This document shows, in pieces, positions 4,919 through 49,515 of a DNA stretch of 64,000 nucleotides; position 1 is the first letter of the stretch; every line of letters starts with the position of its first letter. The DNA comes from a virus. The stretch lies in IMG/VR virus record IMGVR_UViG_3300020048_000136; one strand, 5' to 3'. Under the pieces are notes generated by a model. The model saw only the letters and a program-made list of their open reading frames with translations. It was not told the DNA's origin and did no database searches. A program made the position numbers and the translations under genes.

Positions 4919-7336
4919 TTATGTTTCTGAGGTTATTGAATCTGTATCATGCCTTGTACGAATCTTCATCCACCTTCCTGACATATCTCTACCATCCTCA
5001 GGCATAACACCCTCTTTGAACATAGCATATGAGATAAGCCATTTGTAGAATCGTGTACGGGATATGGTCATCTTTGACCGTGAACCATAGTCGGGGTATT
5101 CGTTTATAAAGTCGTTGAATAGTTCTTGCTTATAAAGTTTAACACCTGCTTCTAACAATCTGTTAGGCTCAGTACCTTCAATAATTCCGCACCATTCAAT
5201 GAATTCATGTGATGACTCTGCTGATAGTTGGCGAATCTTAAGGTTTACAAACTTAGCTTTAACCAAGCCTGTATTAAGGTATCCCTGTAAGCAGCTAATC
5301 ATGTAGTTGTCGAATTCGCACCAATCGTCATCATTCCAATCCCCGAACATCAGTTTCCCGAACTCATCAAGAGGAGTGAACTCCTTTGTGTAATACTGAT
5401 GAAGTTCAAGTTCCCACTTCCTACGTGCAAATGAATTACCTGCACCCTTAATAGCATAGTTGGTTGTGATGGCAATTTTCGGTGATTTGCTGAATGGAAT
5501 CTTGATGGCATCTTTGTTCTTCTTCTCCAATGTCAGCCCCTCGGTGACAACGCTGAACAGACGTTCAAAATCGAAGTGCTTCTTAACGTCATCGAATACA
5601 AGAATCTGAGTGTCTGCCGATACTAACTGATAAGCGAATGACCGCTCAAAAGTAAATGACTTTCCGTCAATAGTTACAACCTTCTTCATGTGACTCAATG
5701 CATTCATAAAGATTCCCTTTCCTGTGCCACCCTCAGGGTTATCACTTATAACCTCATCGTTAAGAATTATAGCAGGGCAGAATGAAAGATTCTTATGTGC
5801 ATGAAGCATAAACCCAATTGTACTATGCATTGAATCTACTCGGCTCTTATCGCCACCACAGATGTTTGATATAAACCTCTTGTAGTCGCAGGACTTTGTA
5901 ACCTTACAGATGTTGAACACCCTGTCAATTACGTGGTCTTTCCAAACATAACCGCCAAGGTCAAGATAGTCTATCGGTATAATCTCATCCTTTGAAACCA
6001 TAACAGCGCAGTTCTTGTAGTAGATGTAAGCCTCGGTAGCCGTATCAGCAATAAAGTAAATGTCGATTGTGGAAAGAAGAGTCAAGAACTCATCCTTAAA
6101 GAACCGTGTTTGGTCAGCGAAGTAGTTGTAAATCCCGACATCGTCTAACTCAATAACGTATGACAGTATGAAGTCTTTAATTTCCTTCTCTGATGTGTGG
6201 TCAATCAAGTTGTTGGTAACCTTTACAAACACATAGTTCTTGCTACCTTCGGGACAGTACTTGTAAAATCCATTGTCCTCAAGGAAGTGCTTGAAAAGTA
6301 TGTGGATTATCTGAATCCTACCCTTATCATTCTTAGACCAAAATATTTGCTTTGAGTTCTCCTCTTCAACTTTTGACAACACGGAATCAATAATATCGCT
6401 ATCCAAATTTGACTCCTGTAATTGGTAGCGAATCTCTTTTTTTGATACACCCCTCCTCAATTTAGTTTTTATAGCGTTAATCCTTTCTTCATCCTCATAG
6501 TACTTAGTTCCAAAGTTGGCTGTATTAAGATATGCTGAGTCAATTGTTCGCTGTATCTCCCGTGACGTGAAGTCTTCAGAAACATACTGCGTTAACACAA
6601 ATGATGCAAGGCTCTTGGCTACTCCAAAATCATTCATTGCCATTGCCAATACATATGTATTCTGATTGCGCTGCCCCGAAACCATTGGATACTTATGTAG
6701 CCACCATTTTGTTAGGATTTCAACAATCTTGTTCTCGTCTGTAATTGGGATTGTAGGAGAATCTCTGTTCTTGCTAACCTCATTATACGATGTTTCTTCT
6801 ATCGTATCCCAAATCGAACTGTTGATATTGACGTGAGTCCTTGGGTCATATGATTCGTAGCATACTCGGCTGATATTCTTGCTCGTCTTATCGAAGTATG
6901 GAGAGTTAAAATAATTCTCCAACGAATTGAAGTAGTTGAGATGATTTTCTACATCGGGTGGAATCTTAACAAGTATCTTTAGTCCATTGCCCGATGGTGA
7001 AATAAAAATTGCAAATACGTATTTGTTTTTTGAAAGAGTCTCCTTGTCTTGAAGAAGTTCCTTCTGAGTTTGATACCCGTCAAAGTCTAAGCAGATAAGC
7101 CCGCTATGGTCAATTATTGAGTTATCATTCCTCTTGGTAAAAGTTCCGCTAAAGCATATGGCAGGTAACTTCTTTTTCAATTCGTTACGCTCAGATTTAT
7201 TCTTCTCTAATCGTATCTTCTTTACAAGGTCTTTAGATGCTCCCTCCTTTATCCTCTCAAGGATTGTCATGACATCCCTATGGAACGGAGTGGCTGTTTC
7301 TTTTATAGTTTGGAATATTGTAACATTTGCTCCCAT
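4919..7336 (-). CDS. primase-helicase (N-terminal AEP/VirE-BT4734-like primase plus D5-like SF3 P-loop helicase)
   Basis: Acidic primase motif LICLDFDGY near the N-terminus. Walker A NPEGGTGKGIF and Walker B-like ILVFDDV in the C-terminal half. 805 aa. Confidence 0.8.
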   Translation of the reverse strand: MGANVTIFQTIKETATPFHRDVMTILERIKEGASKDLVKKIRLEKNKSERNELKKKLPAICFSGTFTKRNDNSIIDHSGLICLDFDGYQTQKELLQDKETLSKNKYVFAIFISPSGNGLKILVKIPPDVENHLNYFNSLENYFNSPYFDKTSKNISRVCYESYDPRTHVNINSSIWDTIEETSYNEVSKNRDSPTIPITDENKIVEILTKWWLHKYPMVSGQRNQNTYVLAMAMNDFGVAKSLASFVLTQYVSEDFTSREIQRTIDSAYLNTANFGTKYYEDEERINAIKTKLRRGVSKKEIRYQLQESNLDSDIIDSVLSKVEEENSKQIFWSKNDKGRIQIIHILFKHFLEDNGFYKYCPEGSKNYVFVKVTNNLIDHTSEKEIKDFILSYVIELDDVGIYNYFADQTRFFKDEFLTLLSTIDIYFIADTATEAYIYYKNCAVMVSKDEIIPIDYLDLGGYVWKDHVIDRVFNICKVTKSCDYKRFISNICGGDKSRVDSMHSTIGFMLHAHKNLSFCPAIILNDEVISDNPEGGTGKGIFMNALSHMKKVVTIDGKSFTFERSFAYQLVSADTQILVFDDVKKHFDFERLFSVVTEGLTLEKKNKDAIKIPFSKSPKIAITTNYAIKGAGNSFARRKWELELHQYYTKEFTPLDEFGKLMFGDWNDDDWCEFDNYMISCLQGYLNTGLVKAKFVNLKIRQLSAESSHEFIEWCGIIEGTEPNRLLEAGVKLYKQELFNDFINEYPDYGSRSKMTISRTRFYKWLISYAMFKEGVMPEDGRDMSGRWMKIRTRHDTDSITSET

Positions 7337-7506
7337 TTTATGTCGATTTTGATGACGTTAATTTAGTTGTAAGTTCCTAATAATCAGTAGCCATGTTAAT
7401 TATGTCGTTTATTTCTTTCTTTTACGTTTAGAAAAAAATAATATAATAGAATTATATATATAGAGAGATAAGGCTCTACTTTTTCGACATAATTGACATT
7501 TATAGG
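7337..7506. repeat. iteron-bearing AT-rich module, copy A
   Basis: ATGTCG(A) boxes at 7340 and 7402, and inverted (T)CGACAT/TGACAT boxes at 7484-7498. The core ATTATATATATAGAGAGATAAGG is about 75 percent identical to 19885-19932. Confidence 0.6.
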
Positions 7507-7511
7507 AGGTT

Positions 7512-7540
7512 AAAAAAGGGGACTATTACATCCCCCTTTT
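7512..7540 (-). terminator. rho-independent terminator after the SSB gene (bidirectional shape)
   Basis: Stem GGGGA/TCCCC with an 8-nt loop. It is followed by a T-run on both strands. Confidence 0.65.
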
Positions 7541-7562
7541 ATATTCCAACTACTGTATTGGT

Positions 7563-7874
7563 TTAGAATGGCAAGTCATCATCAATAGGGGCAGCGTTCC
7601 GAGTGGGTTGTGGAGCAGGAGCAGGTTGACGAGCAGGAGCAGGAGCAGCAGTAGTCTCATCTGCCGATTTAGGAGTGAATGTATCCAACTCCAAGTAGTA
7701 GCTTCCGCCCTTAGATTTGTTGATACTCAGGTTTACCCAACCATTCTTGATGTTTGCATTTAAGAAATCAACTGCATCCTCTACCTTGATTGATAGCTTT
7801 CCTACCACGAAGTCGGGTGCATTGTCTCTACGTTTGAAAGAGAATCCGTTAGCAAAGATTTTTTCTTCTGCCAT
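7563..7874 (-). CDS. ssb: single-stranded DNA-binding protein
   Basis: C-terminal acidic tip DDDLPF preceded by a Pro/Ala/Gln-rich linker, as in bacterial and phage SSBs. Sits among replication genes. Confidence 0.7.
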   Translation of the reverse strand: MAEEKIFANGFSFKRRDNAPDFVVGKLSIKVEDAVDFLNANIKNGWVNLSINKSKGGSYYLELDTFTPKSADETTAAPAPARQPAPAPQPTRNAAPIDDDLPF

Positions 7875-7977
7875 AATTGAAAGTTGTTTTTGTTTTTGTG
7901 TCCCAAATATTTATAATATAGTGCCGAAGATTGGAACGTACTTCGTCATTATATGGAGTGTCGTCAAAGACAAATCG

Positions 7978-8067
7978 TGGTTGGAATGGGAATCGAACCC
8001 ATACTCCGCAGAAGATACCCCACTTTCGTGGCTCGACTACATAGTGCTGCCATTACACTATCCAACC
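7978..8067 (-). tRNA. tRNA-like gene with a non-canonical, expanded anticodon arm (no assignable anticodon)
   Basis: Minus-strand RNA has acceptor stem GGUUGGA/UCCAACC and a D-arm GUG(U)-AAUGGCA-(G)CAC. The T-arm is AUGGG-UUCGAUU-CCCAU, the discriminator is A, and no CCA is encoded. The anticodon position holds stem UGUAG/CUGCG enclosing 25 nt, which include a CCAC-GAAA-GUGG hairpin. Confidence 0.55.
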
Positions 8068-10529: not shown

Positions 10530-10549
10530 AATAAATTAGATTAGCCGAC

Positions 10550-12583: not shown

Positions 12584-12603
12584 AGGTTTATTTATTAAGG
12601 GTT

Positions 12604-12654
12604 TCCGTTTCATCGTTTACGAATCATCGGTCAGGATACACATCCCAAGACAGA
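12604..12654 (-). ncRNA. hammerhead ribozyme-like element HHR-3 (type III topology, U4C core variant)
   Basis: Minus RNA reads UCUGU-C | UUGGGAU-GUGU-AUCCUGA | CCGAUGA | UUCG-UAAA-CGAU | GAA-ACGGA. Same architecture as HHR-1 and HHR-2, with compensatory changes in stem I and a G.U pair in stem III. Confidence 0.5.
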
Positions 12655-12683
12655 AGGAGTGTCTTCGACGACACCCCAACCCT

Positions 12684-13844
12684 TTATTCTCTAAATTTAA
12701 CTACCTCCTCTTCTCTGAACCATATCCCGCAAGACTTGCAGTAATAGTTCGCAAACCCATCAAACTCCAAATCAGAATAGCAATCAACGCACATAGCGTT
12801 CTCCTCGGTGATATTGAAATCAGTAGGAGTAGTTCCCGTTATGAAATCCTGCTCGGATAATCCCGACATAAAATCAAGTTCGTACCTTACATCAGCATCT
12901 TGGAATCGGGATGGCTTATAAGTAATTTCGGGACGAGTCTGAGGTGTAGGAGTATATTTCGGAGCATAACCCATAATCCTTTCAGTATATGTGCGAAAAT
13001 CCTGCTTGTATGCTTTGTGGAATGTAGCATTGGCGCTTATCATCTTCGGATTGAAGTATAACCAACATACAAGGACATTCCCGTTAGCCATCTTGATAGG
13101 AATCTGCTGCCTCTGATACCAATTGGGATGACCTTCCAACCTATCCAAATCAGTTAGCTTATCATCGCTGACCTTGAAAACATCAACAGCAACATTATGC
13201 CCGATACCTTTGCGATTCACTACATAAGGTAGCCCCTCTATTATTAACGGATACTTATCCTTGGTGACTCCATTGCCGACATAAGTACTCTTGGTAAGAT
13301 ACGACTGATAGTTATTGTATCCCTTCTTCAGAGTCCCGTATACGGCAACCAAATGCTCTTGGAGGACATTGCCCTTTGAGTACCAAATATCGCCTCTCAT
13401 TGACCATAGCTGTTGATTGTAAATCTCGTATGTTTTAGTCTTTACGTTGACCGTGACAAACCTGCATGGGTATTTTGCAAGTTCTTCTTCCCAACCGCTC
13501 CTCGGAATCAATCCTAACTTTTCAGCCAACACTTTGCTGTCAGTCTTTTTGTGAGTCCCGATACCCTGTATTGTACCGTTCATCATGAGCCATTCATCCG
13601 AATTTGCACCGCATTGGAATGGATGAGTATTGTCTTTCCCAATCTTGCCAACCGTAGCATAGCGGAAGTGCGCTATAAATGGTCGGGCTGTATCAAGAAC
13701 CTTAAATTCTGATGACTTGTGATAACTGATACTGTAGTCATCAAGCCATACAACACCCAACCCGTCAGGATTGATTAAGGATGATGTCTTGGCTATCTCT
13801 GTGGACAGCCTCTCATTCGACTTCTTAATGATTATTACACACAT
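12684..13844 (-). CDS. fusion protein: class II (Ntn) glutamine amidotransferase, gamma-glutamylcyclotransferase (AIG2/GGACT-like) domain, and C-terminal zinc ribbon
   Basis: N-terminus MC(2)VIII with HFRYATVG...NTHPF...MMNGTI (GATase-II pattern). Central AVYGTLKKGYNNY...LDRLEGHPNWYQR (GGCT/AIG2 pattern). C-terminus CVDC...CKSC. Confidence 0.7.
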   Translation of the reverse strand: MCVIIIKKSNERLSTEIAKTSSLINPDGLGVVWLDDYSISYHKSSEFKVLDTARPFIAHFRYATVGKIGKDNTHPFQCGANSDEWLMMNGTIQGIGTHKKTDSKVLAEKLGLIPRSGWEEELAKYPCRFVTVNVKTKTYEIYNQQLWSMRGDIWYSKGNVLQEHLVAVYGTLKKGYNNYQSYLTKSTYVGNGVTKDKYPLIIEGLPYVVNRKGIGHNVAVDVFKVSDDKLTDLDRLEGHPNWYQRQQIPIKMANGNVLVCWLYFNPKMISANATFHKAYKQDFRTYTERIMGYAPKYTPTPQTRPEITYKPSRFQDADVRYELDFMSGLSEQDFITGTTPTDFNITEENAMCVDCYSDLEFDGFANYYCKSCGIWFREEEVVKFRE

Positions 13845-13908
13845 GATTAAATTAAATTATGGACAGCCACACCCGTAGATATGACTGCCCTGTTAAACAA
13901 TGAATCGA

Positions 13909-13916
13909 CAAAGATA
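13909..13916 (-). promoter_or_regulatory. Bacteroidota-type -7 box TATCTTTG upstream of the GATase-GGCT gene
   Basis: Minus strand reads GTTTTATCTTTGTCGATTC, ending 64 nt before the ATG at 13844. Confidence 0.5.
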
Positions 13917-13960
13917 AAACATATAATAGACATATGCAAGCATTTTCTAAAATATATTTT

Positions 13961-14419
13961 TTAACAGTAGTAAGGTCTCCCTTTTGTTTGATTCTCGCCA
14001 AGGATAAACTCGTCAAAGAATGTGTAATAACCGCCCCGACTCATCTGAACACCCTCTTGATGTTTCTCAATAATAGTCCTGTTCTGCTCGGATGTCATAG
14101 TTGGGTATGTGTATGCTGTGTAGTACCAACCACCTTCTTCTGCACCGCCATAACAACGCTCGTAGCAGTACTGAACTGTGATGGCAGGATAAACATCGCC
14201 TCCGCAGGATAATACGAATTTGACGGCTGTATCTATTACGTCATCATCGTGTAGATAGGTATCGGAAATAATTACAGCCTCGGCATCCTCTATTAGCTGC
14301 TCAAGATGTTCGGGAGCATGAGTTGATGCATACAGGCATTTGTCCTGCTCGTAAAAACGAGCAACAAACACAACATCTACAGAGCCTTCATAGCCCCGAA
14401 TTGAATACGTTCTTAGCAT
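13961..14419 (-). CDS. hypothetical protein (152 aa)
   Basis: Track ORF. Confidence 0.55.
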   Translation of the reverse strand: MLRTYSIRGYEGSVDVVFVARFYEQDKCLYASTHAPEHLEQLIEDAEAVIISDTYLHDDDVIDTAVKFVLSCGGDVYPAITVQYCYERCYGGAEEGGWYYTAYTYPTMTSEQNRTIIEKHQEGVQMSRGGYYTFFDEFILGENQTKGRPYYC

Positions 14420-14424
14420 ATTGG

Positions 14425-14673
14425 TTAAGTTAAAATGATTACTATTCTTATGTCATTGTAGATTGTGGATGCAGTTACATATCCGCAAGAATCTACGGTC
14501 ATCTTGGCAACCTCGGCATTTATAACATTTGCTATCTCTGCCTTGTAATGCCCTTGCAGGGTGATTTCTGATTTGCTTACGCTTATTGAGTAGAAATACT
14601 CAAGCGGTAAATCCTTGGGAGACAATAAAGCCTCAACCATTTCTAAGTTCTTTATGATAAGATGGTCTTCCAT
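14425..14673 (-). CDS. hypothetical protein (82 aa)
   Basis: Track ORF. Confidence 0.5.
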   Translation of the reverse strand: MEDHLIIKNLEMVEALLSPKDLPLEYFYSISVSKSEITLQGHYKAEIANVINAEVAKMTVDSCGYVTASTIYNDIRIVIILT

Positions 14674-14697
14674 AATATTTGTCTTTAAAGATATTAT

Positions 14698-14943
14698 TTA
14701 TTTATTTGTGATTTCTTCGGCATCAGTCCATGCTGCCAACAGGCTTGGATATTCGTATCCATCGACTAAATCCAATGCGTTAAACGCATCTTCATCCCAC
14801 TTGGTGATATCTTTGTCCATCTGATACTGACAGAATACCGTGGTATCCTTTGTTGCGCTGACTCCCACAACACTTACGACTGAGGTATCATAGTTGGTTA
14901 CAACCATCCACTTCATCGCCATTAAGAGCAAGAATGTTTTCAT
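14698..14943 (-). CDS. hypothetical protein (81 aa)
   Basis: Track ORF. A one-mismatch copy of the palindrome (TGTCTTTAAAGATA) overlaps its stop at 14689-14702. Confidence 0.5.
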   Translation of the reverse strand: MKTFLLLMAMKWMVVTNYDTSVVSVVGVSATKDTTVFCQYQMDKDITKWDEDAFNALDLVDGYEYPSLLAAWTDAEEITNK

Positions 14944-14991
14944 GATTCTATAAATTAGATTAAATTAAACTGTACGGATTATCCGCACATT

Positions 14992-15026
14992 GCAGCTAAG
15001 AGGGGAATCGAACCCCTCACAAGCAG
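14992..15026 (-). ncRNA. isolated tRNA T-arm/acceptor-like minihelix (or tRNA 3'-half relic)
   Basis: Minus RNA reads GUGAGGGG-UUCGAUU-CCCCUC-UUAGCUGCA, a canonical T-loop sequence on a 6-bp stem. No D or anticodon arm can be built upstream because that region is the 3' end of ORF 15030..15296. A 7-bp hairpin follows at 14969-14985. Confidence 0.4.
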
Positions 15027-15029
15027 AGT

Positions 15030-15296
15030 TTATGACCTTAAGAATGCCAATAACTCATCCATGTAGCTAACCTCATCACCATCGTCATTTGTTCGGGTAT
15101 CCAAATCCTCAAAGTAGAGGTATTCAGCAGCCCATTCCGAAAAACGTCCCTTCTGCTCGGCATCCATTGCCTTCCAAAGGTTTTTAGCTTGCGTATTCTG
15201 CCCGTTTGACCTTGAGTCTATGATGTACTCAAAGTAATCGTTGATGCAATCGAACTCGTATGGCTCATACAAATTCCTGTCTGCGAAGTAGTCCAT
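15030..15296 (-). CDS. hypothetical acidic protein (88 aa)
   Basis: Track ORF. Confidence 0.55.
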   Translation of the reverse strand: MDYFADRNLYEPYEFDCINDYFEYIIDSRSNGQNTQAKNLWKAMDAEQKGRFSEWAAEYLYFEDLDTRTNDDGDEVSYMDELLAFLRS

Positions 15297-15298
15297 GC

Positions 15299-15469
15299 CT
15301 ATTCAGTTTTAGATTGTTTGTCCTCAGGATAATCGACTCCGATTACCTTGCCGTGTTTGCACACCTTATTGTACCACTCCGTGAAGTGCGCATCGTCACG
15401 GAATGTTTTATTGTAGATTGAATACGCTCCATCGTTTGATTTCACGGTGCATACATAAGTGAATTCCAT
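15299..15469 (-). CDS. small hypothetical protein (56 aa, below track cutoff)
   Basis: ATG at 15469-15467 and TAG at 15301-15299. Translation MEFTYVCTVKSNDGAYSIYNKTFRDDAHFTEWYNKVCKHGKVIGVDYPEDKQSKTE. Exactly fills the gap between two track ORFs. Confidence 0.4.
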   Translation of the reverse strand: MEFTYVCTVKSNDGAYSIYNKTFRDDAHFTEWYNKVCKHGKVIGVDYPEDKQSKTE

Positions 15470-15473
15470 ATTG

Positions 15474-15680
15474 TTACAGTTTAGTGATGAAGAAAAGAGT
15501 TGAGAACACCATATAGGTGAAGATGTGCCACTTCAGATTGCTCCATGATTTCGGCTCATCTGATAGGATTATTACAGCTATTGCCAATGCAGATAGCGTT
15601 ACGAATGTATATGTCCTCATCCCGTAGAAGAATGACGGGAGAATTAAGCAATAGCTTAATATTACGTGCTTGATGTTCAT
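15474..15680 (-). CDS. small membrane protein (68 aa)
   Basis: Track ORF, largely hydrophobic, with two or three TM-like segments. Confidence 0.5.
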   Translation of the reverse strand: MNIKHVILSYCLILPSFFYGMRTYTFVTLSALAIAVIILSDEPKSWSNLKWHIFTYMVFSTLFFITKL

Positions 15681-15682
15681 AT

Positions 15683-15973
15683 CTATTTGATATTATATTT
15701 GTCTAACAATACTTTGAATCCGTGGCGCACTGCCTTTACATAAGCATCAGAGAGATGCCCGAATGTAGCAGGATTGCTCATAAGGATAGAGGTGATAGAT
15801 ACGTAGCGCATCTCTATCTCATGGAGCAGAACCTCGTTAGTCTCACCCATTACGATAGCATTGATAATCTCGGGAGCAGTACTACACTTCCTGCAATTGA
15901 AGACTCCCGTCCTTTTGGATTCGATGTGCCGATTGGCAATCTCGCTCTGCAAAGCACTCAATCTGTTGCTCAT
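15683..15973 (-). CDS. hypothetical protein (96 aa)
   Basis: Track ORF. The start lies 21 nt downstream of HHR-1. Confidence 0.55.
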   Translation of the reverse strand: MSNRLSALQSEIANRHIESKRTGVFNCRKCSTAPEIINAIVMGETNEVLLHEIEMRYVSITSILMSNPATFGHLSDAYVKAVRHGFKVLLDKYNIK

Positions 15974-15994
15974 AGCTTTTTGGTTTTAAAGGTT

Positions 15995-16048
15995 TCCGTT
16001 TCGACTGTTTTCAGTCTTCATCAGCGAAGATACACATCTTCGGACGGA
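15995..16048 (-). ncRNA. hammerhead ribozyme HHR-1 (type III topology)
   Basis: Minus RNA reads UCCGU-C | CGAAGAU-GUGU-AUCUUCG | CUGAUGA | A | GACUG-AAAA-CAGUC | GAA-ACGGA. All core residues are present: C3-A9, G12A13A14, A15.1-U16.1 and the GUC cleavage triplet. One extra nt lies between A9 and G10.1. Confidence 0.75.
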
Positions 16049-16072
16049 GGGAATGTCTTTAAAGACAATCCC
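16049..16072 (-). terminator. 12-bp hairpin abutting the HHR-1 5' end (contains the TGTCTTTAAAGACA palindrome)
   Basis: GGGAATGTCTTT/AAAGACAATCCC with one mismatch. Lies 10 nt after the stop of 16083..16379. The T-run is on the plus strand only. Confidence 0.45.
16054..16067. repeat. palindrome TGTCTTTAAAGACA (hairpin upstream of HHR-1)
   Basis: Exact match. Confidence 0.95.
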
Positions 16073-16082
16073 TTTTTGCGTA

Positions 16083-16379
16083 TTATTTTACGTATACTTT
16101 ATACGTTTTGCCCGTTTTCTTCGAAGTGCGCAGGTAATAAACACCGCCCTTGCTCCCTGTATAAAAGGTTTCCCCTCCTATCACTTGATAAACTTTTGAT
16201 GTCTTTGCTGTTGCTTTGCCCGTATCAGCTATTGTGGTAACCTGACCGTTTACCATCTTGTAATGTGGCGGCTTTTGAGCCTTTACCATAACTCCACTAA
16301 GAACCAATACGATGATTCCGATTACTAATGCAACAGAGATGTACCTGTCGCTTGAATTCCTTCTGTCATAATTTGTCAT
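16083..16379 (-). CDS. membrane-anchored basic protein (98 aa)
   Basis: N-terminal TM helix VALVIGIIVLVLSGVMV. The basic C-terminus TGSKGGVYYLRTSKKTGKTYKVYVK resembles viral basic-adaptor-type repeats (low confidence). Confidence 0.55.
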   Translation of the reverse strand: MTNYDRRNSSDRYISVALVIGIIVLVLSGVMVKAQKPPHYKMVNGQVTTIADTGKATAKTSKVYQVIGGETFYTGSKGGVYYLRTSKKTGKTYKVYVK

Positions 16380-16401
16380 AAGACTTAGAATTTAAAAGAT
16401 T

Positions 16402-16455
16402 TCCGTTTCGACTCTTTAGAGTCATCATCAGCGAAAGCACTCACCTTCGGACGGA
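16402..16455 (-). ncRNA. hammerhead ribozyme HHR-2 (type III topology)
   Basis: Minus RNA reads UCCGU-C | CGAAGGU-GAGU-GCUUUCG | CUGAUGA | U | GACUC-UAAA-GAGUC | GAA-ACGGA. The core is identical to HHR-1, and stems I and II carry compensatory differences. Confidence 0.75.
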
Positions 16456-16475
16456 GGGAGAGATTGCGCTCTCCC
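16456..16475 (-). terminator. 7-bp hairpin abutting the HHR-2 5' end
   Basis: GGGAGAG-attgcg-CTCTCCC, 10 nt after the amidoligase stop. Confidence 0.45.
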
Positions 16476-16485
16476 GTGATTTAGT

Positions 16486-17487
16486 TTAGAAATTTATGTC
16501 AGCTAACTCATCGACAATACCTTCGATTGAATTTCGCCTTGCAGCATTGCTGACTCCTCGCTCGTAAAGACTCCTCATCTGCATACGTGGGTCAACAAAC
16601 TTTTGCACCTCTGTTCCGATTTTGCCCGTCTTAATCATCCTGTGGAATGCCTTGGACAATTCCATGATTTTCTCGGCTTTGTCAACATTGCCATTATACA
16701 TGGAGATAATGATAGGCTTTATGACCTTCAAAAATGATGCATAGGATGTCCGTGGTTTATTGACGGATATATTTACAATCTCGTACATCAATTCGTATCT
16801 GCGCATCATCTGCTTTACAGACTCGAATCGGGAGATGACTCTAAATTCAACTCCGCTTGTCCCGTCAGGGAATCTGACGTACTTTGCGAGATTGTATTTG
16901 GTATGGTATCCGTTGAACCATTGCGCCCTGTCAGATATTGGCAGCATAGTAAGGTTATGGCTGCAATAGCTGTTTGTCAGACGATTGCGAAACAATGCGA
17001 GGAGAATAGCTGAGTTTAAGCGAATCTTGCTGAGTAACTCTTCCCCGTCCATACCTACGCAAGTAATTGTGGCATGACCTCCGCAGTTATTACTGCTTGG
17101 GCTGAATCTGTCATCAATAATACGCTCTGCTTTGTGCATCATGTCGTAAACTTTATTCCTCCATAAACCCGACGGGAGCAAAGGTAAAACGTGAGTTACT
17201 GCCTCGTATCCGCAGCTATTATCTTGCTCAAATCCGCAAAATAATTCATATTCACGAATCGCATCCCTATGAAGTTGATTCTTTTCAACTTCGAATCCGA
17301 TTGTAAATTTGGATGTCACTTCGTCACCCAAAACAGTCACAGCATTTGCTTGTATTACAGGTTTTAGGCTTTCGACATCAGCCCTATAGGCTTTATTCAA
17401 TTTGAACGGTGACGGTTTCGCGTGATAGGAACACACTCTTCCTCGTGCTCTCTCGCCTGAGGTGAGATAAACCACTTCTTTTTTCAT
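16486..17487 (-). CDS. putative amidoligase (glutamine synthetase-like COOH-NH2 ligase family)
   Basis: Motifs IGFEVEKN, GYEAVTHVLP, CGGHATI and GVEFRVISRF match, as recalled, the GxExE / E..T / H.H / EFR pattern of the phage and plasmid amidoligase family. Confidence 0.6.
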   Translation of the reverse strand: MKKEVVYLTSGERARGRVCSYHAKPSPFKLNKAYRADVESLKPVIQANAVTVLGDEVTSKFTIGFEVEKNQLHRDAIREYELFCGFEQDNSCGYEAVTHVLPLLPSGLWRNKVYDMMHKAERIIDDRFSPSSNNCGGHATITCVGMDGEELLSKIRLNSAILLALFRNRLTNSYCSHNLTMLPISDRAQWFNGYHTKYNLAKYVRFPDGTSGVEFRVISRFESVKQMMRRYELMYEIVNISVNKPRTSYASFLKVIKPIIISMYNGNVDKAEKIMELSKAFHRMIKTGKIGTEVQKFVDPRMQMRSLYERGVSNAARRNSIEGIVDELADINF

Positions 17488-17588: not shown

Positions 17589-18224
17589 TTACAAAAATCC
17601 TTGTAGGAATTCAATCGCTGCCTGTATTTCGGATGCATTGTTTGTTGTTTTCAATTCCCCTGACTCTGTCACTCTTACAGCGACATTCTTAACATCATTT
17701 TTCCAAGTGAGGACAAATATCGCCTTCTCCCTCGTAACTGAGGGTGTTCCTTCTCCCTCTTCTCCCTCTTCTCCTTCTCCCTCCTCTGCCTGCGCTGCTT
17801 GCTGCTCCAAGGCTTTAGCGTATCTCAGCAGTCCTTCAATTGTGCGCTCTGCATCATCACCGTTATTCTCGGCAATAGTGCAGTCACGTTTAAATTTGGT
17901 GATAACCTCAGGTTTCACTTCCTGTAGCTTACCAACTTTCAGCATCTTATAGGCAAACGATTTCTGCCATCCGAATACCTTATTGAAGATGTCTTCCGAT
18001 GTCCAAGCTATTCCCTCAGTTGTCAATGTGTTAACTCCCTCCTCTGAGGTGAACCAAAGCATCGCTTTCAATACTAACTCGCTCAACTCAACCGATTTGT
18101 CGAATTTCTGCTTCTTGGCATTCTTTATGCCTGTGTTCAATATTTCAATTGCACTCAGGTTAATTGCCTGACGTACTGTTGCATTCTGTAGGAATGCTGA
18201 TTCAATTGCTAATAAATTGCTCAT
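17589..18224 (-). CDS. hypothetical protein with a Glu/Gly-rich linker (211 aa)
   Basis: Track ORF. Contains a possible HTH (FGWQKSFAYKMLKVGK) and the acidic low-complexity tract EEGEGEEGEEGEG. Confidence 0.55.
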   Translation of the reverse strand: MSNLLAIESAFLQNATVRQAINLSAIEILNTGIKNAKKQKFDKSVELSELVLKAMLWFTSEEGVNTLTTEGIAWTSEDIFNKVFGWQKSFAYKMLKVGKLQEVKPEVITKFKRDCTIAENNGDDAERTIEGLLRYAKALEQQAAQAEEGEGEEGEEGEGTPSVTREKAIFVLTWKNDVKNVAVRVTESGELKTTNNASEIQAAIEFLQGFL

Positions 18225-18915: not shown

Positions 18916-19154
18916 TCGAGAGGAGGGAACGCCCTGTCTCCATGCTTGCATCTTATTGTATTACAGATAGTTACATCTGCTTACTTAAAGTGTTACTTTA
19001 AGTGATTTATCGATATGCTGCGGATATTTATGGTATGAGTGCAGCACAATAGCAGTATAAAGCATAGGAGAAACAGTTAGTTGATTGATTATTAATCTGA
19101 TGCACATATACGCTATTCATCTGCTCGTTATCTATGGCATTGTGTATTAGTTAC

Positions 19155-19286
19155 TTACATTCCATGTAAGCAACAGCAGCAGCAGCAGCAGTAACAAGGT
19201 AAGCAGCAGCAGGAGCAGCAGCAGCAGCAGCAGAGACAGCAGCAGCAGGAGCAGAGACAGCAGGAGCAGGAGCAGGTGCAGCCCAT
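19155..19286 (-). CDS. speculative Cys-rich micro-ORF (43 aa, 27 Cys) across the trinucleotide repeat
   Basis: ATG at 19286-19284 and TAA at 19157-19155. Translation MGCTCSCSCCLCSCCCCLCCCCCCSCCCLPCYCCCCCCCLHGM. No recognisable promoter or leader motif upstream. Confidence 0.15.
   Translation of the reverse strand: MGCTCSCSCCLCSCCCCLCCCCCCSCCCLPCYCCCCCCCLHGM
19168..19280. repeat. imperfect (GCA)n / (CAG)n trinucleotide repeat tract (about 37 units)
   Basis: Runs of GCA units interrupted by GGA, GAG ACA, and GTA ACA AGG TAA. GC-rich island inside an AT-rich non-coding region. Confidence 0.9.
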
Positions 19287-19423
19287 GTATGGAAAGCCTA
19301 AAAATCCTGCAAGAAAATTTGGAATCGTAACCCCACCCCTTCGAATTAAAATCGGTTTCGGTTATGGGTAATGGCTCGCAAAACGCTATAGAACCTAAAT
19401 ACTCTGACCATCTGAATATTTTT

Positions 19424-19979: not shown

Positions 19980-21578
19980 ATGGAAAACTTAGGATATTCT
20001 CCTAAAGATTTGAAGTTTGGGGAAGAAGGTCGCAAGAAGTTAATCGTTGGAATCACGAAGATAGCTACTGCGGTGAAGAGTACCCTCGGCTCGCACGGGA
20101 ACACGGTGTTGATAGAGTCTCCACAGCACACACACGGAATCACGGTAACAAAGGATGGAGTAACGGTAGCTAATGCTATACAGTTGCTTGACCCGATTGA
20201 GAACCTTGCGGTACAGATGATGAAGGAGGCGGCGGAGCGCACATCCACTTCTGCGGGTGATGGGACGACAACGGCAATTGTACTAACGGAGGCATTAGTC
20301 CTCGGTGGTGATGAGTTAATGAGACCACACCATAACAGGGTTGAGGTTCTGCGCAATATGAGCGATATCACTAAGGTTATCATCGATGAACTTAGGAGCA
20401 AACGCAAGCTGCTCACTAAAAAGATGCTCCACGATATCGCAAGCATATCATCCAATAATGACAAGACCGTTGGCAAGGTCATCGCTGACGTATATCGTGG
20501 TATCGGTAAGCATGGGATTGTGACGGTTGAGAAGAGTCAGACTATTGACACGTACTTTGAGACCACAACAGGACTCAAGATTGACCGTGGGTATACAAGC
20601 CCACTATTTATTAATGACCAAAGTAAAGACGAGTGTGTCTTTGAAGACACACATATATTGGTATCAGATGCCGAGATATCAAGTATACTTCAGATTGACC
20701 GACTCGTTAAGCCTTTAGTGGACGGAAACCACAAGCTACTAATTATTGCGCCATGTAGCACAAATGTTGTCAACACATTGGCTTCCAATGTTATTAAGAA
20801 CAACCTGAAGTTATGTAATATTATGCCACCGTCATTCGGCTATAGGCAACACGAACTAATGCAGGATATTGCGATTTCTATAGGCGCTAAGTACTTCTCC
20901 GATAAGACAGGTGATGACCTAAGTCTGATGACATTTGCTGACTTAGGGTTCGCTCCGAAGGTTATCGTTGGTGGAGAGTCCACTATTATTATCAACTCAG
21001 TAGAAGAGCCAAAGCCTCAGGTGACAGAACGTGTTGCTCAGTTGTGGAACGCTCATAAGTTGGCTAAACGTAAGCATGACAAAGACTTCATCTTGCAACG
21101 GATTGCATCCCTGACAGGTGGAATTGGAGTAATCTATGTTGGTGGACATACCGACCTTGAACAGAAAGAACTTTATGACCGTGTTGAGGATGCAGTATGC
21201 GCAGTTCGCTCGGCAATGGAGGAAGGAATTCTTGAAGGAGGAGGTAAAGCCCTTTGGGATATTGACCTATCACGGGTTGTTACCCACAGCGAAGAAGAAG
21301 AGGTAGCCCTTGAGATTATAGCACGGGCATTACGTGCGCCACTCACTCAGATTCTGACAAATGCAGGGCTTAAAGTTAAGGATATCTACTATGCAGGGAT
21401 ACCACAAGATATGGGATTCGATGTAAAGAACCATAAGTATGGCAACATGATAACCATGGGAGTTATCGACCCCTTAAAAGTCACACGGAGCGCTCTACAG
21501 AACGCAGTCTCTGTGGCGATGACAATCCTTAGTACTAACGCAATTATTACAATGGCGAGGACTTATGAGACAAAATGA
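19980..21578 (+). CDS. groEL: phage-encoded GroEL-type chaperonin (Cpn60)
   Basis: AVKSTLGSHGNTVLI, TVTKDGVTVANAIQL, SAGDGTTTAIVLTEAL and a C-terminal GVIDPLKVTRSALQNA all align with conserved GroEL blocks. 532 aa. Confidence 0.9.
   Translation: MENLGYSPKDLKFGEEGRKKLIVGITKIATAVKSTLGSHGNTVLIESPQHTHGITVTKDGVTVANAIQLLDPIENLAVQMMKEAAERTSTSAGDGTTTAIVLTEALVLGGDELMRPHHNRVEVLRNMSDITKVIIDELRSKRKLLTKKMLHDIASISSNNDKTVGKVIADVYRGIGKHGIVTVEKSQTIDTYFETTTGLKIDRGYTSPLFINDQSKDECVFEDTHILVSDAEISSILQIDRLVKPLVDGNHKLLIIAPCSTNVVNTLASNVIKNNLKLCNIMPPSFGYRQHELMQDIAISIGAKYFSDKTGDDLSLMTFADLGFAPKVIVGGESTIIINSVEEPKPQVTERVAQLWNAHKLAKRKHDKDFILQRIASLTGGIGVIYVGGHTDLEQKELYDRVEDAVCAVRSAMEEGILEGGGKALWDIDLSRVVTHSEEEEVALEIIARALRAPLTQILTNAGLKVKDIYYAGIPQDMGFDVKNHKYGNMITMGVIDPLKVTRSALQNAVSVAMTILSTNAIITMARTYETK
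20636..20649. repeat. palindrome TGTCTTTGAAGACA (inside groEL; read as VFED)
   Basis: Exact match. Confidence 0.95.
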
Positions 21579-43134: not shown

Positions 43135-46100
43135 ATGACCAATATAACGAGAACATTCATTACAGGCAGAATGAATAAGGTTGTCGATGACCGCCTTATC
43201 CCCAATGGAGAGTATATTGATGCCCTTAATATTCGTATGGGTTCTGCCGAGAAGTCAGATATAGGAGTGGTATCTAATACTCTTGGGAATACAAAGCTCT
43301 CATTCTTAATGTTTGAGGGAATCCCATTAAGTGATGATGCACGTTGTATTGGTTCTAAAGGTAACGGGAGCAAGGAGACTATCTATTGGTTTGTGCATGA
43401 CCCATCATTCCCTCTTGGGGCTACAGGTAAACTTGACATGGTGGTGTCACTAAACACGACTACATCAATACTGACATACCATCTCATAACAATTGATGAT
43501 GGGGGTGGCATAAACACTACATTGAATTTTAATCCACTATACACAATTACAGGTATTGACTTACTTGATGATATGCTATTTTGGACTGATGACTATAATC
43601 CTCCACGAAAGATAAATATTACAAAAGCGTATCCTATTGGTGGGATAGGGACAGACCCATTAGAGGCTGAGGAAATTCTTGTTATAAAGAAACCGCCTAT
43701 TGAGTCCCCACCTGTACAAGTACTATATACAGGAAATGAAGATAATTTTCTACAGGAACGATTGATATGCTTTGCATATAGGTATCTGTACGAAGATGAT
43801 GAGTACTCTGCTATCTCTCAGTTTAGCGCACCTGCATTTATCCCAAAAGCATTTAATTTTAGTGTAGACAGCTATCTGAATGAGGGGATGGTAAACTATG
43901 GCAATGCAGCTATTATATCATACAATACAGGGAGTAAGTATGTTAAGGGAATAGACATCCTATTTAAGGAAGCGGATAGCAATATTATAAATGTAATAGA
44001 GAAGCTCAACAAGAAGAACATGGGTCTTGTAGATAATACAGTATATACATACTCATTTGCAAATAGCAAGATATTTACCATACTGCCTGACTACGAGTTA
44101 TTAAGACTATTTGATAGTGTTCCATTATTGGCAAAGGCGCAGACAATTATGGGCAACAGAATTATGTTTGGTAACTATGTTGAGGGATATGATTTGATTG
44201 ATAAGTATGGGAATCCTTCAAGGTTAGATTACTTTACAGACCCAATCTCTGAGGAGATAGGCGTAACATCATTCTCAAATACATTTGATGAAGGGAGCTA
44301 TAGTATTGATGGAGTTAAATTAATAACTAACTCAATTATAAGCATTGACCTTACAGGATATGAACTTAAATCTAATTCGTCAATTACAATTGACTTAAGA
44401 TTTGAGCATAGCGATTGGTCAGGTATAGTGCCACCTCCATACCCAACTGATGTAACTGCAAATACAGACTTAACGTTCCCATTTATTTTGCCAAGGGATT
44501 ATTCCTCTGTACATGAAATGGTTACAAGTGATGAGTTCCTATCTGTGGTAGGTACTGTCGCTAACATAAAACCGATGTCACTTGCTTGTAATGGGGGGAC
44601 TTGGACTGACTTCTTTAATTGCAACCTTCCAAATAATCTTGGAGGATTATATAAATCAGATAGTGGAATAGATGGACTTACCCAACCAATAAAGATTACA
44701 TCATCTACATCAAGTAGCATAATAGAGATACAGCTTTTAGCAGCAGTATATGTTGATGACTTAGTTTCTCCGACTGTTACTAAGTATGAATATTATAAAG
44801 CAAACTATGCTAATACGACATTCCAAGAGATTTCAACTCCAAGAAGCCTTCACAGTAATAGGGGATATGAGGTTGCTATCGTATATATGGATGATTTCTT
44901 ACGCTCATCCACAGCATTAGTTAGTTCCGACAATACGGTTTCATTCCCTTGTAGTGCATCTGATACCAAGAACAGTATCCGTGTTACTATACCAACAACG
45001 CAGATTGCGCCTTATTGGGCAACACGATATAAGTTTGTTATAAAGCCCGATGAGCATACGTATGAAACTATATATAGCAACATATTCTTTAATGACCCCA
45101 AAACAAATTCATCATTCTTTTTATTAGATGGTGAAAATTCTCAAAAGGTAGAGAAGGGGGATAGGTTAATTGTAAAGGCTGATACTGAAGGAGCTACTAC
45201 ATCATGTGTGTACGCTACAGTACTTGATAAGGAGGCACAAATAGAGGGGTTTATAGAACCTGTAGATGGGGAAGGTAATGTTATAGTTGTCCCTTCAGGT
45301 GTTTATATGAAGTTAAATGCCAATGACTTTAATACAGTAAAGGGCGATAATGCTATAATAGACCTGCATGAGAAAAGTGCTGTAGCAGATTATGATTCTT
45401 GGTTTTATGAGGGTAGAAATTATCCTATACTTCATTATCCTGTTAGTTTTCTTTCAGGGTCAACTGTAATCCCCATAGCGATACCACAGGGTAGTATTAT
45501 AAAGCTATCATATAAGTTTGAGCGTAAGGGTACAGGTGGTGGTGATAATGCGTGTGAAAGGCGTAACTATACATTAGATAAGACACTTGTCGCATCAGCT
45601 CCATATTTAAGTTTTAAGGCTTGGTGGGATGGGGATAATGTACAGAACATATTAAATACAGGTACTGCTGATATTGGAGGAGGTGAATGCCCTCCCGATA
45701 ACTCATATGATATTACAATAGCAACAAATCCTAATGATATTAATACTTCATTATGCACTAACTATTGGAGATTCTTTGAAGACCCAATAGACGGTCGGAT
45801 GTATCTAATGACTACAGGGACTAAGAGATGTACAGGAGATATACTTATAATAAATGCCAAGAAAAGGAAGTCTTATGTAACGGCTCACATAATTATCTTC
45901 ACTTCAAGCGGAACTGTTATATTTGAAACAGAGCCACAAGATGCATCCCCTGACATATTTTTTGAGAATGAAGAGTCATTTGCTATCTCATCAGATGGAG
46001 AGCATATGGGTAATGTACAGAATCAAGACTTCTTACTTAATCAGAACGGGATAGTAGATACGGGATTCTTTAATTGCTATGCATTTGGCAATGGAACAGA

Positions 46101-48720: not shown

Positions 48721-49515
48721 ATGGAATATACACTAACATTTAGCGAGGGAGCGCAAGGATGGGCTTCATTTTATTCTTACATCCCCGATTGGATGATTGG
48801 GATGAATAATAATTTCTACTCATTTAATAATGGCAACCTGTACAAGCATAACTCACATCCAATCCGTAATAACTTTTATGGACAGCAATACACATCAAAG
48901 ATTCGTAGCGTGTTTAATGATGAGCCTCTTGTAAACAAACTCTTTAAGGCATTAAACTTAGAGGGAGATGCTGCATGGGGAGCATCATTGACTACTGACA
49001 TACAGAACACGGGGTACATTGATGAGGCATGGTTTGAGAAGAAGGAGCAGTCGTTCTTTGCATTTGTAAGAAACTCAGGTTCAATCCCTGCATCATCAGA
49101 TGAGTATGTGTTAAGGTCGATAAATGGTATCGGAAGGGGAGAGTCATTAGTTACGTTACTTCCTTCGTTGGTAGAGGTAAACTTCTCCATATCACCACTT
49201 GTATCAATAGGAAACATCATAAGCTGTGGGGATACTCTTTATTACGCTATTCCCCCATATACTACTCCTATCTATGCAGGGGAGGTTTATCTCGTTACAG
49301 TAGATATTCCTAATGGCATAAATAAGATTACCGTTCAGAACCTACCACTTGTAACTATACCAATTGGAGATGCCTACTTTATGTTCGTAAAGAACTCGGT
49401 TGCTGAATCGCATGGGGTATTAGGACACTACTGTGTATTTGAATTGGAGAATGACTCAACATCACATATAGAGCTGTTTGCAGTAGAATCATCCGTTATG
49501 AAAAGTTATCCGTAA
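48721..49515 (+). CDS. hypothetical virion protein (264 aa)
   Basis: Track ORF. Confidence 0.55.
   Translation: MEYTLTFSEGAQGWASFYSYIPDWMIGMNNNFYSFNNGNLYKHNSHPIRNNFYGQQYTSKIRSVFNDEPLVNKLFKALNLEGDAAWGASLTTDIQNTGYIDEAWFEKKEQSFFAFVRNSGSIPASSDEYVLRSINGIGRGESLVTLLPSLVEVNFSISPLVSIGNIISCGDTLYYAIPPYTTPIYAGEVYLVTVDIPNGINKITVQNLPLVTIPIGDAYFMFVKNSVAESHGVLGHYCVFELENDSTSHIELFAVESSVMKSYP

Follow-up and report, generated by a model that had tools for sequence, protein, structure and literature searches.

The question raised by this locus is whether two predicted enzymes encoded in the early gene block of a phage, a ligase of the glutamine synthetase (GS) fold and a three-domain fusion protein, work together, and on what kind of chemical bond. 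The window analyzed here is a stretch of 64,000 nt from IMG/VR virus record IMGVR_UViG_3300020048_000136 and covers nearly all of a 64,556-bp phage contig. An earlier sequence-only reading of this DNA had singled out two open reading frames (ORFs) as an uncharacterized phage amide-bond system; both are present, on the minus strand. We found that the ligase and fusion genes are linked, and we predict that the module is a minimal, fused variant of the amidoligase/class-II glutamine amidotransferase (GAT-II)/gamma-glutamylcyclotransferase (GGCT) cassette of podoviruses, with a divergent ligase, and not the form described earlier. That the pair makes and processes gamma-glutamyl-type amide bonds, as a phage-specific variant of that cassette, is the explanation we favor, at somewhat better than even probability.

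Domain structure of the fusion protein

The analysis confirmed the predicted architecture of the 386-aa ORF, in which a class-II (N-terminal nucleophile, Ntn) amidotransferase, a GGACT cyclotransferase and a Cys4 zinc ribbon are combined in one polypeptide. The three-domain call of the sequence-only reading was right throughout, as judged by Pfam, PHROG and PDB matches and by the invariant residues. In Pfam, the fusion scores 75.7 bits to GGACT (PF06094, cut-off 22.8) over residues 166 to 267, covering profile positions 1 to 104 of 120, and 24.2 bits to GATase_4 (PF13230, cut-off 23) over residues 54 to 96 only, so that both domains are above the cut-off. GATase_6 is also matched by fusion homologs. 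The double zinc ribbon model DZR_2 matches residues 346 to 380 weakly, under its cut-off. PHROG 2520 matches the GGACT domain with E = 3e-19, and the nearest solved relatives of this domain are the mammalian A2LD1/GGACT structures 1vkb, 2kl2 and 3jub (E ~1e-14), to which YGTLK and Glu237 align. The GAT-II domain is short (~160 aa) and shows weak matches only, to the YafJ-like structure 1te5, to GFAT and to EgtC (TIGR03442, E = 0.19). No synthase (ammonia-acceptor) domain was found in the fusion; the C-terminal partners of the GAT-II domain are the GGACT domain and the zinc ribbon.

The motifs MC.., HFRYAT, NTHPF, NG, YGTLKKGYNNY, LEGHP and CxxC...CxxC are seen in the translation and are invariant in an alignment of 41 homologs that are 49 to 98% identical. 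In the GAT-II domain the invariant positions are Cys2, Arg61 of HFRYAT, NTHPF, Asn89-Gly90 and Asp102; presumably, as in GlmS and PurF, the Cys is the nucleophile and the Arg, Asn-Gly and Asp belong to the glutamine site. In the cyclotransferase domain they are Tyr169 to Lys173 (YGTLK) and Glu237 of LEGHP. More distant fusion homologs keep Cys2 and the two CxxC motifs. A search of 185,579 species genomes with conserved peptide patterns, which is sensitive to close relatives only, found such a relative in just three contigs, all from Bacteroidota metagenome-assembled genomes (MAGs) and of phage-like size. The fusion thus appears to be essentially phage-restricted.

A divergent ligase of probable GS fold

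The motifs GFEVE, EAVTH, GGHATI and GVEFR are found in the translation of the ligase gene, and residues E66, E68, E95, H138, E214 and R216 are invariant in 40 homologs. The family is large, with more than 849 homolog clusters at 90% identity, none of which has a Pfam domain, and at least 692 representative clusters at 50% identity. The sequence-only reading had assigned the protein to the amidoligase family of phages and plasmids. The assignment holds at the level of fold and distant homology and fails at the level of the Pfam family: Amidoligase_2 gave no match to the window protein at E ≤ 0.1, to 40 family members at E ≤ 10, or in 10 distant relatives, and the Pfam check proposed in that reading was therefore negative for the window protein and 49 relatives. 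Searches of PHROGs, NCBIfam and PADLOC with the ligase found nothing, and neither did a PDB sequence search with the family profiles.

The AlphaFold (AF2) model of the ligase has a pLDDT of 74 and a pTM of 0.80. Among its top 50 matches in the PDB, almost every one is a GS or YbdK/GCS2 structure, but the scores are weak (E 2e-3 to 8e-2, template modeling (TM) score ~0.3). Compared with a viral structure library, the model first finds its own unnamed homologs and then mostly proteins named "Amidoligase enzyme" (E 3e-4 to 1e-1, probability ~1.0). The profile comparison used 124 diverse family members (effective number of sequences, Neff, 4.7). In hhalign this profile aligned with the Amidoligase_2 protein tf_21 of phage tf, itself a PF12224 member (24.9 bits), over 172 columns with a probability of 76.6% and P = 2.2e-5. 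The motifs are in register (GFEVE/GFEVE, CGGHATI/CSTHLHM, KY/KY and VEFR/VEFR), and the metal/ATP-type motifs of the ligase, an ExE strand, a His motif and an ExR motif, are conserved and align to the same motifs in tf_21. As a specificity control, 42 large ORFs of phage tf were compared with the ligase profile; two GS-like ligases scored best, with tf_21 at the top. An earlier, shallow ligase profile (Neff 2.3) was not significant in hhalign, and significance came after the profile was widened. A relationship to COOH-NH2_lig (tf_19) was not significant (hhalign P = 0.03) and was rejected.

By these comparisons the ligase is a predicted distant relative of Amidoligase_2 that lies under Pfam's membership threshold. 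Fold searches with the model and the profile comparison together place it as a divergent GS-fold carboxylate-amine ligase with putative activity. It shares with PF12224 ~170 homologous residues, four motifs in register and a similar predicted structure; it differs in having no match to the Pfam model and in its own N-terminal extension, a conserved stretch of ~60 aa in the family. Distant ligases (P0242 to P0390, for example P0300, P0370 and P0388, and L084 at 6314-8038) carry N-terminal domains of 150 to 500 aa that have no Pfam match. These extensions could be substrate-recognition domains. The family is missed by current family databases, and therefore the system is under-counted in viromes.

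Linkage of the ligase and fusion genes

The related-locus sample consisted of 80 viral contigs with the ligase gene, the majority from one phage family. Every locus with enough downstream flank has the fusion gene on the same strand, downstream of the ligase, 0.2 to 4.9 kb away. The gap is 193 bp in L077 and L078 and 59 bp in MW202828. Downstream of the distant ligases P0300, P0370 and P0375, at 45 to 58 bp, is a gene for a 367- to 426-aa protein that starts with MC.II, can be aligned with the fusion from residue 1 onward and carries two CxxC motifs at its end; contigs of this type carry different replication and packaging genes. In L072 (8251-10897) the order is a GAT-II/zinc-finger protein lacking GGACT, a RadC-like JAB-domain protein and the ligase. 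The JAB protein hints at an isopeptidase-type partner. Given that the ligase and fusion genes adjoin each other even in phages that have diverged deeply, the two are predicted to be one functional pair.

In the window itself the genes are 2.6 kb apart, with nine small ORFs and two hammerhead motifs between them. The spacing pointed out in the sequence-only reading therefore holds for this DNA, and it appears to be derived: adjacency seems to be the usual state, since the genes adjoin in divergent phages. The small ORFs between the two genes differ among relatives. The window spacing, and the origin of most of the 80 loci in one phage family, would also suit two independent early genes that share a conserved neighborhood and co-occur with no functional meaning. 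That explanation is at odds with the direct adjacency in several deeply divergent lineages and with the clustering of the same three enzyme families in unrelated LUZ24-type phages, and we give it next to no weight.

Two neighboring proteins were considered as further components. A 98-aa membrane protein (16083..16379) does lie between the two enzymes, as noted in the sequence-only reading; eight other small ORFs lie there too, and it was found in none of the 80 related loci. It was rejected as a system component and is regarded as variable cargo because of this absence. The other protein, p211, is the product of the gene immediately upstream of the ligase gene. It is modeled with confidence (pLDDT 87) as a helical domain at the N terminus and a small beta-alpha domain at the C terminus, joined by an acidic Glu/Gly linker; searches of families, PDB sequences and folds matched nothing. 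It was not detected in the N-terminal half of the longer ligase protein of MW202828, so there is no Rosetta-stone fusion. With neither a match nor such a fusion, p211 was not accepted as a third component. The coordinates of all features are listed in Table 1.

Table 1. Features of the ligase/fusion region in the window (positions in nt; HH, hammerhead; MFE, minimum free energy)
Feature	Position	Strand	Basis
Ligase gene, 333-aa divergent GS-fold carboxylate-amine ligase (amidoligase-like)	16486..17487	-	ORF, invariant residues, fold matches
Ligase catalytic core, aa 60-243, aligning with Amidoligase_2 protein tf_21	16759..17310	-	hhalign
Fusion gene, 386 aa, GAT-II/GGACT/Zn ribbon	12684..13844	-	ORF; more than 857 homolog clusters, full-length conservation
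Class-II (Ntn) glutamine amidotransferase/amidohydrolase domain, aa 1-160	13365..13844	-	GATase_4; C2, R61, N72-F76, N89-G90, D102 invariant
GGACT/AIG2-type gamma-glutamylamine cyclotransferase domain, aa 163-269	13038..13358	-	Pfam GGACT, PHROG 2520, PDB matches; Y169-K173, E237 invariant
Linker, Tyr/Gly/Pro-rich, aa 270-345	12810..13037	-	Alignment: no conserved columns, widely varying length
C-terminal Cys4 zinc ribbon, aa 346-386	12687..12809	-	C352, C355, C369, C372 invariant
p211, gene directly upstream of ligase	17589..18224	-	In ~79 of 80 related loci; system membership candidate only
HH-c, type III hammerhead after ligase	16398..16459	-	54.6 bits; canonical core plus extra U between A9 and G10.1; predicted cleavage after C 16450
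HH-b, type III hammerhead after 98-aa ORF	15991..16052	-	58.1 bits; canonical core plus extra A after A9; predicted cleavage after C 16043
HH-a, type III hammerhead-like, after fusion	12600..12658	-	56.7 bits; core CCGAUGA (U4 to C), U10.1/U11.1 mismatch; predicted cleavage after C 12649
GC-rich hairpin abutting HH-c	16456..16475	-	Sequence and family MFE
GC-rich hairpin before HH-b	16049-16072	-	Sequence and family MFE
GC-rich hairpin before HH-a	12656-12677	-	Sequence and family MFE
TATCTTTG, promoter-like motif	13909..13916	-	65 nt upstream of fusion ATG; fits TAnnTTTG

Relationship to the podovirus cassette

Iyer et al. in 2009 reportedly made a computational prediction of an amidoligase/GAT-II/GGCT/ATP-grasp gene set. 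The sequence-only reading had connected the locus to that prediction, and the connection is borne out: phage tf has Amidoligase_2, GAT-II and AIG2/GGACT proteins as neighbors, and later papers cite the prediction. In phage tf (LUZ24-like) the neighboring early genes encode COOH-NH2_lig, Amidoligase_2, a 531-aa class-II GATase, an ATP-grasp enzyme, a GGACT protein and MazG. The GAT-II protein tf_22 matches window nt 13614-13739 (E = 5e-4), and the GGACT protein tf_25 matches the other domain of the fusion. The cassette is labeled a "putative peptidoglycan modification module" in phages phiEco32, LUZ24, tf, PaP3, RIO-1 and CW02, in papers that refer back to Iyer et al. 2009 and Hardies et al. 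2013 (PMC5498523, PMC11945000). Since 2009 the amidoligase/GATase/GGCT set has turned up in many phage genomes, where it is routinely labeled a cell-wall modification or "auxiliary metabolic" module. The literature search found no experimental study of the set, including the peptidoglycan idea, in agreement with the description of the locus as uncharacterized.

The window and the podovirus cassette have in common the superfamilies of GS-like amidoligase, class-II GATase and AIG2/GGACT cyclotransferase and a location among the early or replication genes of lytic phages; the cassette is likewise biochemically uncharacterized. The cassette consists of five separate genes, whereas the window has two, with GAT-II and GGACT fused to a zinc ribbon. 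No ATP-grasp enzyme, COOH-NH2_lig, second amidoligase or MazG was found in the window, either by a protein family scan of 49 of its ORFs or by a six-frame search with the tf proteins. The podovirus cassette has Pfam Amidoligase_2, while the window ligase belongs to a separate family outside Pfam, PHROGs and NCBIfam. The hosts also differ, being Proteobacteria for the cassette and probably Bacteroidota for the window phage. The two-protein variant, kept across very divergent phages, marks the core of the pathway and is a simpler target for in vitro reconstitution.

The sequence-only reading had also listed nucleotides and DNA bases as possible substrates. Lee et al. (2021) reported genes with amidoligase and glutamine amidotransferase Pfam domains beside thymidine-hypermodification genes in viral contigs, and in such a role the two enzymes would add an amino-acid or polyamine group to a modified base, or trim it. 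The gene content of the window gives this role no support, as the 49 ORFs scanned include no dUMP hydroxymethylase, 5-hmU kinase, aGPT-Pplase, TET/JBP or other base-modifying enzyme. Moreover, the pair persists in phages with differing replication and packaging modules, and the window ligase falls outside the Pfam Amidoligase_2 family named by Lee et al. We consider DNA or nucleotide hypermodification very improbable.

Proposed reaction and alternative explanations

Domain identities and linkage are observations; from them we infer the chemistry and the target. The group that GS-fold ligases usually activate is the gamma-carboxyl of glutamate. Both enzymatic domains of the fusion presumably recognize an L-glutamyl group that has a free alpha-amino-acid end and is linked via its gamma-carbonyl. 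For the GGACT domain, a specificity for gamma-glutamylamines is predicted from the nearest solved relatives, A2LD1/GGACT, and from established knowledge of these enzymes. In the proposed reaction, the ligase would use ATP to activate a carboxylate, which by the precedent of GS, glutamate-cysteine ligase (GCL) and PuuA is most likely the one in the gamma position of glutamate, and would couple this to an amine of a substrate from host or phage. The fusion would bind the free alpha-amino-acid end of glutamine or of the gamma-glutamyl group. Its GAT-II domain would hydrolyze the amide to glutamate and NH3 or a free amine, and its GGACT domain would free the amine while forming 5-oxoproline. If the fusion hydrolyzes or releases the gamma-glutamyl bond in this way, the gamma-glutamyl mark or intermediate would therefore be transient, as with BtrJ/BtrG in butirosin or EgtA/EgtC in ergothioneine synthesis. 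The zinc ribbon and flexible linker would probably dock the fusion on a macromolecular partner. Cytoplasmic peptidoglycan precursors, the candidate favored in the literature, may be the substrate.

Characterized enzymes offer parallels for such a cycle. BtrG strips the transient gamma-glutamyl protecting group that an ATP-dependent ligase puts on during butirosin synthesis, and EgtC takes off the gamma-glutamyl group added by the GS-fold ligase EgtA in the ergothioneine pathway. Like the middle domain of the fusion, GGACT (A2LD1) and BtrG have the YGTL motif and the catalytic Glu; unlike it, with its attached Ntn amidohydrolase and zinc ribbon, they are single-domain proteins. The ligase partner of BtrG has an ATP-grasp fold, and the partner in the window has a predicted GS fold. 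EgtC and YafJ resemble the window GAT-II domain as stand-alone class-II amidohydrolases with an N-terminal Cys nucleophile and no synthase domain. The window domain differs from them in being shorter, and its matches to them are far under the family cut-offs.

Several points weigh against the gamma-glutamyl cycle. The ligase reaches no curated family model, and its fold matches are at low TM-scores. Glutamate as the activated carboxylate is taken from the partner domains only, and the substrate and activity of the family members are themselves predicted. It seems redundant to have two domains that both cleave gamma-glutamyl amides, and a GAT-II domain acting as a classical ammonia donor suits the amidotransferase paradigm at least as well. 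Because one phage family supplies most of the 80 loci, their linkage could be no more than synteny; ~5 independent lineages were sampled, and in one of them, P0322, no fusion is found within the 2.8 kb present downstream of the ligase.

The main alternative is glutamine-dependent amidation, in which ammonia released by the GAT-II domain would be passed to a carboxylate activated by the ligase (R-COOH to R-CONH2). The likely target would be a peptidoglycan precursor, the altered wall would block superinfection or change lysis, and the GGACT domain would serve as an accessory clean-up enzyme. Precedents are AsnB, LtsA/AsnB1 (amidation of meso-diaminopimelate) and MurT/GatD (iso-Glu amidation of lipid II), and these known peptidoglycan amidation systems share the same logic. 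The invariant glutamine-binding and catalytic residues of GAT-II fit this reaction, as does the persistence of the ligase/GAT-II pairing in L072, where GGACT is missing. The name given to the podovirus cassette in the literature points the same way (PMC5498523, PMC11945000), although the peptidoglycan target is a literature hypothesis only. Against amidation, GGACT is conserved as strongly as GAT-II and is fused to it in nearly all lineages, which an accessory role leaves unexplained. The GAT-II domain is short, and support is lacking both for a complex formed with the ligase and for an ammonia channel. We rate amidation as unlikely, and clearly short of an even chance.

A second alternative is protein tagging. 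Here the ligase would put glutamate, or the C-terminal Glu of a peptide, on lysines of host or phage proteins in the manner of PafA, and the fusion would erase or mature the mark, with GAT-II deamidating Gln to Glu like Dop and GGACT removing epsilon-(gamma-glutamyl)-lysine. The GS-like fold is common to PafA and Dop, as known from established work and in line with the fold search, and epsilon-(gamma-glutamyl)-lysine is the canonical substrate of GGACT, the relatives of which are among the PDB matches. The zinc ribbon and disordered linker would suit docking on a macromolecule, a JAB-domain protein lies between the GAT-II gene and the ligase in L072, and Iyer et al. (2009) mention peptide modifications of proteins in their title. 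On the other hand, no tag protein or target was identified, and p211, the sole constant neighbor, adopts no recognizable fold, nor is it joined to the ligase in other phages. GGACT requires a free alpha-amine, so that the erasable marks would be mono-glutamyl only. PafA/Dop and the proposed pair are alike, by analogy only, in having a GS-fold ligase that makes a gamma-glutamyl-lysine isopeptide and in the Gln to Glu deamidation; the window pair differs in showing no detectable sequence relation, Pup-like tag or proteasome context. We judge protein tagging improbable. With a similarly small probability, the pair may be a self-contained system of a writer (the ligase) and a targeted eraser or maturase (the fusion) for mono-gamma-glutamylation of amines on host macromolecules, for example protein lysines. 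If true, it would be a phage-encoded, pupylation-like modification for host takeover.

Hammerhead motifs and upstream hairpins

The sequence-only reading had also described a hammerhead motif immediately after each of the two enzyme genes. Rfam found no hammerhead in the window, at the gathering score or at E ≤ 10. At the homologous sites of L001, a 55%-identical relative, Rfam Hammerhead_3 (RF00008) scores 49.6, 44.7 and 43.9 bits (gathering score 48.5). A covariance model (R1) was built from these three L001 hammerheads only. R1 gave exactly three matches in the window, at 54.6 to 58.1 bits, and the next best match was at 7.5 bits. Across 82 sources it detected 165 sites, all on the coding strand. 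After each gene the RNA reads hairpin, NNNGUC, stem I, CUGAUGA, stem II, GAAAC and NNN. Covariation supports three stems around the core, with stems I and II closed: among 128 distinct family members, 97.2% of the cells pair, and 13 of 15 pairs show double (compensatory) changes; 507 cells are doubly changed, compared with 140 in shuffles, and slid controls are at most 59% paired. The motifs after both genes are thus supported by R1 matching and covariation. They go with the lineage rather than with the two enzymes, being absent from phage tf and from distant lineages that have retained the pair, and on these grounds they were rejected as a part of the enzyme system. On sequence evidence they are probably a feature of the early transcript of this phage lineage.

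Of 80 loci, 64 have a hammerhead after the ligase; one occurs after the fusion in 40 of 69 loci, and between p211 and the ligase in only 5 of 79. HH-b and HH-c have the full core and the GUC site, one inserted base after A9 and a longer stem II. The insertion is found in none of the 148 other aligned family members, and it is enough to hide HH-b and HH-c from Rfam. In HH-a, the U4C change is shared by 2 of 150 family members and the U10.1/U11.1 mismatch at the base of stem II by 26 of 150, mostly just after the fusion gene. Besides HH-a, such post-fusion U10.1/U11.1 variants occur in L006, L007, L009, L013, L014, L022, L026, L029, L040, L060 and others. The recurrence of this variant suggests a conserved, possibly slower or regulated ribozyme and not decay. 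The array adds more than 160 covarying natural ribozymes, and the position-specific core variants could inform how core changes tune cleavage.

Each hammerhead is fused to an upstream hairpin, the sequence of which is often GTGTCTTCAAAGACAC. Over 126 distinct flanks in the family the mean MFE of these hairpins is -13.2, compared with -3.4 for random and -5.0 for shuffled sequences, and 98% have at least six pairs. The hairpin and hammerhead behave as one repeated element that brackets variable small-gene cargo, and the element may be a recombination site for gene shuffling. Clustered hammerheads on either side of phage genes are known from Perreault et al. (2011), where a function in processing long transcripts was suggested (PMC3088659). 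The phage and prophage hammerheads in that work are like those of the window in that several lie on the coding strand and flank single genes or short gene blocks. The window hammerheads differ from the Rfam RF00008 set in escaping Rfam, in their core variants and in the fused upstream GC hairpin. Their predicted role here is likely the processing of long transcripts, as Perreault et al. proposed: the hammerheads would cut the early polycistronic RNA into gene-sized pieces, each of which would keep a protective 3' hairpin.

Promoter-like motif and genome context

The Bacteroidota -7 promoter consensus is TAnnTTTG. The motif TATCTTTG, one copy of which lies upstream of the fusion gene, occurs 11 times in the window compared with 4.2 expected, and 0 of 100 shuffles reached 11. 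Sites are found for example at 10549, 13909, 19424, 37971, 41441 and 49524; they are mostly oriented with the gene and are often 15 to 65 nt upstream of start codons. We consider TATCTTTG a candidate promoter element, which fits the Bacteroidota -7 consensus and agrees with the Bacteroidota MAG matches. The complete -33/-7 pair, TTTG-N17-23-TAnnTTTG, is not enriched in the window and was rejected.

A DNA-level similarity search of the window against known phages found no match. The minus-strand block that includes both enzyme ORFs also encodes an SNF2 helicase, a BT4734-type primase, a PDDEXK protein, a Sak annealing protein and DnaA-like helix-turn-helix proteins. The plus-strand block encodes GroEL, a protein with the crAss "muzzle" domain and a 3218-aa ORF. 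The GroEL (Cpn60) gene, at 19980-21578(+), is kept beside the early block in this phage group and is also found in L001, L084 and L091; relatives add GroES. Two giant ORFs with no Pfam match, at 52706-62362(+) (3218 aa) and 43135-47760(+) (1541 aa), adjoin the crAss-virus muzzle C-terminal domain protein at 48721-49515. Because of this arrangement, the gene content suggests a crAss-related podovirus, small at ~64.5 kb. GCT/GCA triplet repeats occupy 19104-19290, in the divergent region that separates the minus- and plus-strand gene blocks; they yield a 43-aa ORF of Cys, Ser and Leu only and a spurious isrG match.

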